Positions 24,783-28,460 of a DNA stretch of 64,000 nucleotides are shown here, piece by piece. Source of the DNA: Candidatus Harrisonbacteria bacterium (GTDB lineage: Bacteria; Patescibacteriota; Minisyncoccia; UBA6257; 1-14-0-10-40-38); assembly GCA_023245035.1 (NCBI GenBank), contig JAHFLD010000002.1, forward strand, positions 67,297 to 131,296. The letters are read 5' to 3'. A model generated the notes under the pieces. The model was not told the origin of the DNA. It made no database searches and saw nothing but the letters and a program-made list of their open reading frames with translations. Both the position numbers and the translations under genes were made by a program. Within the stretch, counting starts at the first letter, position 1; the number at the start of each line of letters is the position of its first letter.

Positions 24783-26897
24783 ATGAGGCAGTACCCAATG
24801 CAAAAAGTGAGAGATATTGGTGTTGTCGCGCACATCGATGCCGGTAAGACAACCGTTTCAGAGCGAATTCTTTTTTATACCGGAATTTCCCATAAGATAG
24901 GCGAGGTGCATACCGGCGACACGGTGATGGATTGGATGGATCAGGAGCGCGAACGAGGCATTACGATTACCTCGGCGGCGACCACTTGTTTTTGGACGCC
25001 GACTTACGCTCATAAGGACGCGGCCGGCAAAGACAAGGCCGATGAGCACCGGATTAATTTGATTGACACTCCGGGACATATTGACTTTACCGTGGAGGTG
25101 AAGAGATCGCTGCGCGTTTTGGACGGCGCGGTGGTGGTGTTTGACGGCGTGGCCGGCGTGGAGCCGCAATCGGAAACCAACTGGAGGTACGCCGATGATT
25201 ACAAGGTGCCGCGAATTTGTTTTATTAATAAATTAGACCGGATGGGCGCGAGCTTTGAAAACAGTTTGAAATCCATTCAAGATCGTTTAACTCCGAATGC
25301 CATTCCAATTCAATTGCCGATAGGACTCGAGGGAAATTTTGAAGGCATTGTGGATTTGTTGCGAATGAAGGCCTATCACTTTACGGGCGAGCGAGGCGAA
25401 AACATAGTTGAGGGAGAGATTCCAGCCCAAATGCTCGATGAGGCTAAATTACGAAACCATGAATTGGTGGAAAAAATCGTGGAGCAGGACGACCGCCTGA
25501 TGCACTCCTATTTGGAGGGGAGAATTCCGGCGCTTCATGAGCTAAAGGCCACTTTGCGCAAAGCGACGATTGCCAACAGTATTGTGCCGGTGGTTACCGG
25601 ATCGGCTCTAAAAAATAAGGGCGTGCAATTTGTTTTGGACGCGGTGGTGGATTATCTGCCCTCGCCACTAGACATTCCTCCGGTCAAAGGAATTGATCCT
25701 AAGACCAACGCCGAAATTAGCCGAAGTCCGAACGACAACGAGCCGGCTTCCGCGTTGGCTTTTAAAATTGCCGCCGATCCTTTTGTGGGCAGTCTGACTT
25801 TTTTCCGCGTCTATTCCGGAGTGGTCAAAAAGGGAAGCTATGTTTTTAATTCCACGAAGGGCATTCAGGAGCGCGTCGGCCGCATCGTGCGGATGCACGC
25901 CAATCACCGCGAAGAAGTTGATGAGATTCCAGCCGGAGATTTGGGCGCGATTGTGGGTTTGAAAGATACGACGACTGGAGACACTTTGTGTGATTCCGAA
26001 CGGCCGATTATTTTGGAAAGAATTGTCTTTCCGGAACCGGTTATTTCCATGCGAGTTGAGCCAAAGACTAAGGCGGATCAAGAAAAAATGGGTATTGCTC
26101 TGCGCCGACTTTCCGAAGAAGATCCGACCTTCCGAGTCGGTGGCGATCCGGAGACCGGTGAGATGATTATCTCTGGAATGGGTGAGTTACATTTGGAAGT
26201 TTTGGTGGAGCGGATGAAGCGGGAGTTTAGCGTTCTGGCGAATACGGGCAAGCCGCAAGTGGCGTATCGCGAAACTATTCGCCGTCACGCCGAAGCCGAA
26301 GGCAGATATATTCGCCAGACCGGAGGGCGAGGTCAATATGGTCACGTTAAGATTAAGCTGGATCCATTGGAGCGAGGCAAGGGTTTTGAATTTATTGATG
26401 ACACGACCGGCGGTTCCATTCCGCGCGAGTTTATCGCGCCGGTGGAAAAGGGTGTTCGGGAGGCCTTGACTCGGGGTATTTTGGCCGGTTATCCGGTTAC
26501 CGATCTATCTTTGACGCTTTATGATGGCTCGTTCCACGAGGTGGACTCGTCGGAGGCGGCTTTTAAAATTGCCGGTTCTATGGCTTTTCAGGAGGCGGCC
26601 AAGGCAGGGGATCCGGTTATTTTGGAGCCGATTATGAAGGTGCAGGTTTTGATGCCGGCGGAGTTTATGGGCGACATCACCGGAGACATCGCCGCCAAGC
26701 GAGGCAAGATTGAATCGATGGATGATCGGATGAACATTAAAGTAGTGAATGCCAAAGTTCCGCTTTCTGAAATGTTTGGTTATGCCACGAAGTTGCGCTC
26801 AATGACGCAGGGACGCGGCAATTTTACAATGGAGTTTTCACACTACGAGGAGGTGCCGAAGAGTGTGTCACAGCTTATAATTGAGGGCAAGAAGTAG
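24783..26897 (+). CDS. fusA: elongation factor G
   Basis: G-domain motifs [18 protein letters not shown]; five-domain EF-G architecture. Confidence 0.97.
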
Positions 26898-27245
26898 GCT
26901 CGGACTCTTCTTTTGCGGGGGACCGGCTTTGATTTTTTTCCGGCGAAGTAGGCTTGGACTCTCATTCTGCGGGGACCGCGATAGTAAATCTCCAGCGGAT
27001 TTACTTCGCTTCCTCTCGCTTCGGCAATTCCAACTTTAGTTGGAAACCAATCTTGCCGAAGCTCCGAGAGCTCCCCGCAAAATGAAAGTCCTCGCAGTTA
27101 GGGTGATGGAATACCAAGCTGCGAAGCGCTCCGAGAGCTCCCGCCTCCGCTAAACCTGCCTGTCGGCAAACAGGGCTACGGCGGGCAAGCCCTCCTGTTC
27201 GGCGGGCAAGCCCCGCACAAAGAAGAGTCCTCGCGGTTGGATAAT
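26885..27245. repeat. composite intergenic repeat cluster in the fusA-tuf gap: inverted and direct copies of family D (CCCCGCAnAAnGAAnAGTCCTCGCnGTTnGG) plus family C copy C2 (27140-27190)
   Basis: 26900 GGACTCTTCTTTTGCGGGG is the reverse complement of 27207 CCCCGCACAAAGAAGAGTCC. Tandem copies at 26890-26960. D copies also at 50624-50726 and 39780-39900. Confidence 0.65.
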
Positions 27246-27333
27246 TAAAGATGCGAGGTTTTTTGCCTTTTTTTATGGATGTGGTATGGTTTGAGCAGTT
27301 CGTTGACAGTTCGGTTTCCGTTTTTCTCCGACT

Positions 27334-28284
27334 GTGGAGAGAAAGGGGTTAGCTTTGGATGAGCCGAAGGTTCTGTTGGTTGAGCTGAAGATCCCGCGTT
27401 TTTGGACGCTTGGGATGTGGGTTTCCGTTTCCCTTCTCGGTTTGGCGATGGTTTTTTGGTTCGTAGTTCAGCTTTACATGCAGCGAGAGTTTGGCAGGAT
27501 TGATGAGTCCCTAGCGAGGTGGAAGGCCGAAGATGCAAAGACGGCTTCGCTGAATTTGAAGACCGAAGAGACAAAGACGACTCCGCTGTTTCATGACGAT
27601 GGTTCCGTTTTCAAGTCGGACTACGCTTATTCCGATGGCTACTTACCACGAAGCGTGGCGGCGCAGGTGGCAATTCTTCGCGAGCATTTTCCGCAGTTGG
27701 GTTCGTTTGACGAGAATCTGGCGATGCAATTTCTTCCAAGGGGCGCCGAAGCCAACTTCGCCATGCCGAAGTGGCAGAAGATTGACCCGGATTATCCCAG
27801 GGCGGTGCAAAAGATGCTTGGCGCGTCGCACTTGAGCGGCGAGGGTTTCGGGGCTATACCTTCAAGCTTTTCTTTCGATGGCGAGCATTTGGTTTCTATT
27901 CCGCGAACCGTTAATTTTCGAGGCACACTTTACAGCCGTCAAGGACAACACGACATCGTGGTGGTGCCGGCGCAATTTGGCGGGAAGTACGCGGGAAGAT
28001 CGCCGTCGGAGATTGATTTCCGTTTGCCAAGCAATGAGTTTGTCTTTGGCGCCTTTGAACTTGCGGTCTACTATCTGACTCACCCAGAGCGATTGCGCTC
28101 GGAGCGAGACGCTGGTTTGATTGCGGTAGGCGATGAGTGCTGTTTGACTCGTCCGGGTGAGGGAGTTGTTTTTAATATGGCGCCTTGCTTGCTCCAAAAG
28201 AGCAAGTCCGTTCTTTTTTCCTTGCAACTGAAGCACAACTCGTTTGCGTCGTTCGGTTCGCCGACGTGCTTCTTGTCTGAATAG
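27334..28284 (+). CDS. hypothetical membrane-anchored protein inserted between fusA and tuf
   Basis: 316-aa ORF with one N-terminal TM helix, its own terminator (28291-28329) and flanked by repeat families C and D; no recognizable domain. Confidence 0.5.
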   Translation: MERKGLALDEPKVLLVELKIPRFWTLGMWVSVSLLGLAMVFWFVVQLYMQREFGRIDESLARWKAEDAKTASLNLKTEETKTTPLFHDDGSVFKSDYAYSDGYLPRSVAAQVAILREHFPQLGSFDENLAMQFLPRGAEANFAMPKWQKIDPDYPRAVQKMLGASHLSGEGFGAIPSSFSFDGEHLVSIPRTVNFRGTLYSRQGQHDIVVVPAQFGGKYAGRSPSEIDFRLPSNEFVFGAFELAVYYLTHPERLRSERDAGLIAVGDECCLTRPGEGVVFNMAPCLLQKSKSVLFSLQLKHNSFASFGSPTCFLSE

Positions 28285-28290
28285 TCGGTT

Positions 28291-28329
28291 AAGCCATCTT
28301 CCGTTTTACGGGCGATGGCTTTTTTATTT
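28291..28329 (+). terminator. rho-independent terminator (AAGCCATC...GATGGCTT plus TTTTTTATTT)
   Basis: Hairpin plus T-tract immediately after the stop of the inserted ORF. Confidence 0.6.
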
Positions 28330-28342
28330 GTACACAGGCTTA

Positions 28343-28371
28343 TTGACACTATTTAGGGGTTTGTCTACAAT
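28343..28371 (+). promoter_or_regulatory. sigma70-like promoter for tuf (TTGACA, 17-nt spacer, TACAAT)
   Basis: Consensus -35 at 28343-28348 and -10 at 28366-28371, ~90 nt upstream of tuf. Confidence 0.55.
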
Positions 28372-28460
28372 TCAGATATCGCTGCTTGATAGTGGCGGCC
28401 TTGCTTTCTTTCCTGCAAAATCAGTGAGAGGCGAGAAATTATAAACCCATATCAAAAACC

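Follow-up and report, generated by a model that had tools for sequence, protein, structure and literature searches.

What is the extra open reading frame (ORF) that separates fusA from tuf in Candidatus Harrisonbacteria bacterium, and how did it come to lie there? The window, i.e. the whole stretch of DNA analysed here, comprises 64,000 nucleotides (GenBank assembly GCA_023245035.1, contig JAHFLD010000002.1, positions 67,297 to 131,296 of the forward strand). A first-pass annotation, made from the sequence alone, had reported at this place a non-ribosomal, membrane-anchored ORF forming its own transcription unit with repeats upstream, and all of these are present. Our reading, to which we attach a rough probability of 0.7, is that the ORF encodes a stand-alone membrane-anchored protein with a C-type-lectin (CLec) fold, derived from the variable proteins of Patescibacteria diversity-generating retroelements (DGRs). 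The extra ORF and its two neighbours are as follows:

24783-26897, plus strand: fusA (elongation factor G, EF-G), end gene of the rpsL-rpsG-fusA unit (ORF call; Pfam domains of the same gene on the identical contig L055)
27334 (GTG) or 27355 (TTG) to 28284, plus strand: the extra ORF, read here as an orphan homologue of Patescibacteria DGR variable proteins (316 aa from GTG 27334, 309 aa from TTG 27355)
28461-29660, plus strand: tuf (elongation factor Tu, EF-Tu), which opens the tuf-S10 unit (ORF call; Pfam on L055)

The protein had been described as having no recognizable domain. Searches of sequence libraries (Pfam, NCBIfam, PDB sequences and PDB profiles) were indeed all empty, but homology, genomic context and fold evidence supersede them and the description is abandoned here. 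A single-sequence homology search returned four proteins: the NCBI entry identical to the ORF product, the orthologue P0002 with 57% identity, and two distant matches. The profile built from those four proteins recovered 425 clusters at 90% identity, and an exhaustive profile search recovered 2,034 representatives at 50% identity, of which 1,063 had E <= 1e-30. The members, about 296 aa in length, bear the label 'hypothetical' without exception and are devoid of Pfam domains; the matches with a named source are few, and all belong to Patescibacteria.

The genomic context was looked up for six family members. A bAvd gene and an RVT_1 reverse transcriptase (RT) gene are located directly downstream of the homologue in L002, L004-L006, L007-L009 and L052, i.e. 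in 4/4 of the loci with enough downstream context. The remaining two look-ups were uninformative on linkage: the contig of P0099 stops about 1 kb past the gene, and P0005, which is longer and has two domains, is encoded in another context. Furthermore, in L002, L007 and L052 a second copy of the last ~130 nt of the homologue lies between this gene and avd, and the mismatches between the two copies fall on adenines of the non-coding copy in 23/23, 14/14 and 17/17 cases, respectively. Because these 54/54 mismatches are all on adenines of the non-coding copy, the repeat pairs are the template repeats (TRs) and variable repeats (VRs) of DGRs.

Two of these loci were also of interest in themselves. 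In L004-L006 (6001-8400), which represent an abundant population found on more than 24 contigs, the family member is adjacent to bAvd and to a truncated or split RT and no TR is detectable, as if a DGR were decaying there while its target gene is retained. In L007 (3181-8937), from Zambryskibacteria, a complete target-TR-avd-RT cassette directly follows secY-adk-map at the end of the ribosomal protein supercluster; this layout echoes the ribosomal protein genes found inside DGR cassettes of the candidate phyla radiation (CPR) (PMC5758913).

The window ORF aligns with proven DGR targets directly. Indeed, (i) BLASTP matched it to P0011 (3e-39) and P0031 (1e-39) with 34-35% identity over about 240-250 residues, (ii) these alignments continue to the C-terminus through the VR, so that the homology to demonstrated targets spans the variable region, and (iii) the core motifs D-I-V/L-V-V-P-A-Q-F-G ... 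G-R-S ... L-T-H-P-E-R-L are common to the ORF and the CPR DGR variable proteins, described as the clade-2 DGRs of Patescibacteria/CPR (Roux et al. 2021, PMC8144416) and as the 'CPR set' (Wu et al. 2018, PMC5758913). The C-type-lectin fold is also common to both: the AlphaFold2 (AF2) model of the ORF, which is confident in its core and has a long helix at residues 22-77, shows this fold of DGR variable proteins. Foldseek searches of the model against PDB and BFVD gave non-significant matches only. TvpA (Treponema denticola variable protein 1, PDB 2y3c) and other DGR variable proteins of solved structure have CLec folds or folds like that of the formylglycine-generating enzyme. TvpA shares only 4% sequence identity with the ORF, with no sequence-level match, and is actively diversified, with remote paralogous targets, whereas no diversification is demonstrable for the ORF. 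On account of the homology, of the DGR context of the homologues and of the alignments to proven targets, the ORF product belongs, with high confidence, to the DGR variable-protein family of Patescibacteria and has its C-type-lectin fold. Its parts are as follows:

27400-27477, plus strand: N-terminal hydrophobic transmembrane anchor, residues ~16-41 of the 309-aa form (hydrophobicity scan)
27592-28281, plus strand: C-type-lectin-fold domain, homologous to the family core
28159-28281, plus strand: segment equivalent to the VR of the DGR-linked homologues, last 41 codons (codon comparison with the VR/TR of L002 and L007)

The N-terminal part sets the ORF apart from the CPR DGR variable proteins. 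Its first ~80 residues differ from the soluble N-terminal module of the family, in place of which it has the transmembrane anchor. The same hydrophobicity scan detected an anchor in the orthologue P0002, and in only 4/266 of the family members examined. DGR targets of CPR are usually without transmembrane segments or known domains (PMC8144416). The flank on the N-terminal side of the transmembrane segment is more positively charged in P0002, and on this basis the product is probably a single-pass membrane protein, oriented N-in/C-out, with the CLec domain displayed outside the cell. To our knowledge, neither transmembrane-anchored targets nor remote targets have been described for CPR DGRs.

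Is this copy still diversified? Two answers were weighed: that it is an orphan, no longer diversified, and that it is an active remote target whose segment 28159-28281 is rewritten by an RT, an Avd and a TR located more than 35 kb away, outside the window. Unlike the CPR DGR variable proteins, the ORF has no TR, Avd or RT next to it or anywhere in the 64-kb window. Indeed, three RT and three Avd queries yielded no more than chance matches in the window by tblastn, an adenine-tolerant scan and low-stringency blastn found no TR-like copy of the ORF 3' end in it, and the canonical TRs had no match to the window DNA, so that the cognate TR and the RT/Avd of a DGR target are missing from these 64 kb. 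To the left of the window, nothing DGR-like was found in 3.9 kb of DNA and in ~9 kb of gene calls on a second contig, where cell-division and ribosomal genes only are encoded; at the right edge, a look-up of the outermost protein gave no record. Also unlike the CPR DGR variable proteins, the ORF has VR-equivalent codons that are not derivable from canonical TRs, many of them being unreachable through adenine changes, and its sequence is static across contigs: the window, L055 and L056 agree in 100% of its DNA, and a fourth contig, for which no DNA was available, encodes exactly the same protein.

The VR equivalent itself carries signs of both kinds. It retains the scaffold positions F..AP, V.F and [YF]GS..F, and its codons 6-23 differ at most positions between the window and the species of the orthologue; both features would suit a remote active target, as would the fact that family members are DGR targets and that targets more than 100 kb from their RT are documented in other lineages (PMC5758913). 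Other scaffold residues of the segment have changed (W to L, F to Q). The differences from the orthologue include many third codon positions, and an 18-nt stretch (LKHNSFA) overlapping the canonical hypervariable sites is fully conserved between the two species; these two observations, the lack of TR, RT and Avd in the 64 kb and in the leftward stretch, and the identity of the sequence in four contigs argue against continued rewriting. Active diversification from a distance is thus held to be unlikely, and the fuller version, in which the ORF is a membrane-displayed remote target of a DGR elsewhere in the genome, is unlikely as well. The orphan, no-longer-diversified copy is favoured, and on balance probable, because no cassette was found in the stretch searched, the N-terminus is different, the VR equivalent has drifted, the sequence is identical across assemblies and the decay of L004-L006 offers a precedent.

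The following course of events would account for such an orphan. In canonical members, the last ~40 codons are the variable region, rewritten via the adjacent TR, bAvd and RT by adenine-specific mutagenic retrohoming, and the C-terminal ~40 residues of the CLec domain are the binding face of the diversified homologues. In the lineage of the window, the gene would have lost its DGR cassette, or have been parted from it, the transmembrane anchor would have taken the place of the soluble N-terminal module, and the sequence would now change by ordinary substitution under moderate purifying selection. The product most likely goes back to a DGR target and binds a ligand or the host with fixed specificity.

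How the ORF came to lie between fusA and tuf is a separate question. The first-pass annotation had tied dispersed repeats to the insertion of genes into core operons, and it was therefore considered whether a foreign gene had recently entered the str operon via these repeats, bringing its own terminator and forcing a new tuf promoter. The sequences in question are as follows:

26891-27245, no strand assigned: nested inverted-repeat block of 355 bp, resembling miniature inverted-repeat transposable elements (MITEs) and repetitive extragenic palindromic (REP) elements (repeat comparison and RNA fold)
27228-27264, plus strand: candidate weak fusA terminator, CCUCGC...GCGAGG stem followed by U6 (read from the sequence)
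27263-27290, plus strand: candidate promoter of the ORF, TTGCCT-16-TGgTATGGT, with an extended -10 (read from the sequence)
28291-28336, plus strand: intrinsic terminator of the ORF, a 13-pair interrupted stem followed by U6AU3 (fold and conservation in L001)
28343-28371, plus strand: tuf promoter, TTGACA-17-TACAAT (consensus scan, 11/12)
28372-28460, plus strand: conserved 5' leader of tuf (comparison with L010)

The age of the arrangement is the first point to decide on this insertion. A second genome, GCA_964367145.1 (L001/L010), has D-type repeats, the orthologue, the same terminator, a TTGACA/TACAAT promoter, a near-identical leader and tuf, and a metagenome scan for close relatives added only L050, which has 2 mismatches to L001, none of them in the ORF. 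Synonymous divergence (dS) between the two genomes is 0.66 for tuf and 1.0-2.0 for rpsJ, rplC and rplD. The arrangement represents at most one old event, since it is common to a second species at a dS of ~0.7-2. As far as the two genomes can be compared, it is older than the split of the two species and vertically inherited. Conservation of the position with no repeats attached had been set beforehand as the finding that would speak against insertion. The first half holds in one relative, where the position upstream of tuf is conserved, but the repeats are present there too.

The second point concerns the spacer in the wider clade. Species-representative genomes were scanned with RplD, and fusA and tuf were then mapped. 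In these relatives 88 bp to 2.7 kb separate fusA from tuf, and the larger gaps contain a ~100-aa Phd/YefM-like ORF, IS200-like Y1 transposases, an MNT/HepT toxin-antitoxin pair, membrane proteins and other hypotheticals; a homologue of the window ORF was found in none of the relatives' gaps apart from L010. Many relatives have a consensus-like TTGAC(A/T/G)-16/18-TAnnAT promoter immediately 5' of tuf, and those with gaps of 88-131 bp are among them. The promoter is thus not 'fresh', as had been proposed, and because tuf promoters occur in relatives with short gaps, the fusA/tuf junction is a clade-wide operon boundary that was not made by the insertion. The fusA-tuf spacer is an operon boundary that tolerates cargo, and a recurrent landing site for accessory genes.

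Among this cargo, the ~100-aa ORF (MNIDELKKLVK...NGEPSFVIL...) lies directly upstream of tuf in many Paceibacteria (L022 6746-7060; similar in L024, L026-L029 and L048) and has a weak match to the Phd/YefM antitoxin. IS200-like Y1 transposases and the MNT/HepT pair are found at L027 375-1043, L041 4991-5701 (minus strand) and L032 4923-5806. IS200/RAYT-like genes were seen only in the fusA-tuf gaps of relatives.

The third point is the repeats themselves. A block of family C and family D repeats upstream of the ORF had been predicted, and it was recovered as nested inverted repeats spanning 355 bp. Its outer arms are at 26902-26920/27211-27230 and its inner arms at 26956-26975/27072-27091; it contains family D units at 27057-27113 and 27128-27142 and a family C unit at 27135-27184, and its RNA fold has z = -5.7 against shuffles. 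In the window, family D occurs at 27057, 27128, 50614 and 50666 (4 matches against 0.04 expected) and family C at 9008, 27135 and 40805. The dispersed copies (3-4 per family) with nested inverted arms are alike to REP/MITE repeats in their short dispersed units, terminal inverted repeats, nesting, intergenic location and strong folding; they differ in their low copy number, 3-4 per family in 64 kb. Neither target-site duplications nor a cognate transposase were identified for them, no analysis of target-site duplications having been run. D-like copies are also located upstream of the orthologue in L001, at 60-95 and 305-342.

Besides, the first D-left repeat overlaps the fusA stop codon (GAAGTAG, 26891-26897) and a copy 54 nt downstream (26945-26951) has the same seven bases, which suggests a local duplication of the fusA 3' junction. 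The block probably lies within the 3' untranslated region of fusA, ahead of the weak hairpin and U6 at 27228-27264.

Some observations are in line with an insertion via these repeats: repeats adjoin the ORF in both genomes that have it, a C copy (40805) lies beside a second extra ORF (39940-40752), and an IS110-family transposase is encoded in the window (9812-11041). Against it, (i) the arrangement is common across a dS of ~0.7-2, (ii) repeats adjoin the ORF borders on one side only, while the spacer between the ORF and tuf holds no repeat and is ~90% identical between the window and the second species, (iii) tuf promoters exist in relatives without the insertion, and (iv) families C and D also sit in spacers without extra genes, and the C copy near the second ORF was not detected in L010. 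The proposed tie between repeats and insertion into core operons is accordingly given up, and a recent repeat-mediated insertion is very unlikely. We saw no evidence that the repeats were the vehicle of the ORF; at most they mark one old event.

The transposase mentioned above (Pfam Transposase_20) lies inside a 4.3-kb segment made up of small hypothetical genes, with 147-nt direct repeats (6794-6929 and 11122-11265, 77.5% identity) on either side. This segment may be a mobile island.

Signals for expression of the ORF are largely shared with the second species. A rho-independent terminator downstream of the ORF had been announced, and the fold bears it out: the hairpin at 28291-28329, past the stop codon, has -17.8 kcal/mol and z = -4.9 (0/200 shuffles as stable), with the U6AU3 run directly 3' of it. 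It is kept in L001, where an A-to-G change preserves pairing; a consensus terminator scan had missed it, its loop setting being too short. This hairpin was also considered as a DGR target-recognition hairpin and rejected in that role, as no hairpin of this kind follows the stop codon in canonical family loci, and the one in the window ends in a classic U-tail. The tuf promoter matches 11/12 consensus positions, is the top-scoring site within 8 kb and has both hexamers unchanged in L001. Over 85 nt, the 89-nt tuf leader and its L010 counterpart share 96% identity, against ~56% at tuf synonymous sites; the window leader has no Rfam family match and its predicted fold is not significant (z = -1.8). 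Since the spacer as a whole is ~90% identical and the tuf synonymous sites only ~56%, terminator, promoter and leader are under constraint.

Upstream of the ORF, the hairpin at 27228-27264 (-12.6 kcal/mol, z = -1.3) is not significant alone, and the equivalent position of L001 has a different GC hairpin with a T-run. The putative ORF promoter at 27263-27290 is kept in L001 as TTGCGT-16-TGtTATGGT in the alignment, and a Shine-Dalgarno-like GGAGAGAAAGGGG at 27336-27348, upstream of TTG 27355, is kept there as well. The ORF would thus be transcribed from the candidate extended -10 promoter, translated from TTG 27355 past GGAGAGAAAGGGG and terminated at 28291-28336.

Selection was assessed by comparing the window ORF with its orthologue, with the ratio of non-synonymous to synonymous changes (pN/pS) as measure. 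It is 0.49 for the CLec core (95% confidence interval (CI) 0.37-0.66), 0.54 for the VR equivalent (95% CI 0.34-0.85) and 0.96 for the N-terminal 79 residues (95% CI 0.79-1.21). The check for codon-level selection that had been asked for thus indicates purifying selection on the ORF, hence no pseudo-ORF. A pseudo-ORF, left over from a former DGR cassette and now decaying or without function, is extremely unlikely: the cassette is absent from the stretch searched, the N-terminal 79 residues evolve neutrally and decayed DGRs occur in the family (the RT of L004 is truncated, without TR), but the reading frame is intact in two species at a dS of ~1 with a core pN/pS of 0.49 (CI 0.37-0.66), the transmembrane segment, Shine-Dalgarno, candidate promoter and terminator are conserved, and the AF2 core is confident. 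Judged from these alignments, the ORF is a real, fast-evolving gene kept in place, and neither a recent insertion nor a pseudo-ORF.

Several points weigh against the reading as a stand-alone lectin-fold protein derived from a DGR target: (i) the orthologue was found in one other genome only, on a contig that starts inside the repeats, so that fusA is not visible there; (ii) the search for a DGR covered 64 kb and ~4-9 kb leftward of a 200-kb contig; (iii) the four identical contigs are related assemblies and consensus sequences, in which minority VR variants are invisible; (iv) membrane topology and ligand binding are derived from sequence and model; and (v) the candidate promoter of the ORF scores under the threshold of the consensus scan.

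The remainder of the locus follows the canonical str (rpsL-rpsG-fusA-tuf) and S10 operons, of which the window keeps the order rpsL-rpsG-fusA ... tuf-rpsJ-rplC-rplD. It departs from the canonical str operon in that tuf of the Paceibacteria clade has its own promoter, in that the fusA-tuf spacer of the clade is variable (88 bp to 2.7 kb) and cargo-bearing, and in that this spacer holds the CLec gene and the repeat block in the window. The flanking genes are as follows:

23735-24154: rpsL (ORF call)
24216-24683: rpsG (ORF call)
29765-30094: rpsJ (ORF call)

In the Rfam search, the window yielded two tRNAs only, and 26800-28500 was without a credible match. A 46-nt AT-rich element with repeated ACGAAT motifs is located in the rpsL/rpsG (24168-24213) and tuf/rpsJ (29665-29709) spacers, the two copies sharing 93% identity. 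The tuf/rpsJ copy is followed by complementary ATTCG motifs, and a partial copy is present in a ribosomal-operon spacer of L010 (4621-4647); the element may serve these spacers as a common regulatory or leader sequence.

The second extra ORF (39940-40752) lies between secY and adk and has a counterpart in L010 (13035-13844) with 42% protein identity, compared with 95% for the flanking secY and adk. It has no Pfam match, the homology search found only itself, and its single-sequence AF2 model is unusable (predicted local distance difference test score 36.6). It was considered as a paralogue of the DGR-target-family ORF, which is not supported (hhalign probability ~1%).

In summary, extra genes at the fusA/tuf junction of Paceibacteria are no evidence of repeat-driven disruption of a core operon, because the junction is an operon boundary and a recurrent site of cargo. 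An anonymous inserted ORF is now placed in a defined CPR protein family, which is very large and whose mechanism of diversification is known; what is new here is the transmembrane-anchored, DGR-less architecture and its site between fusA and tuf. This Pfam-less family (~2,000 representatives at 50% identity) could be modelled to flag active and orphan DGR targets in CPR genomes. If the ORF were a remote target after all, a CPR episymbiont would hypermutate a surface lectin from a locus amid the most highly expressed gene neighbourhood of the cell. On the reading preferred here, DGR targets can persist as fixed membrane-anchored lectin-fold proteins once parted from the retroelement, and the ORF product is a plausible surface-recognition protein for the episymbiotic lifestyle.

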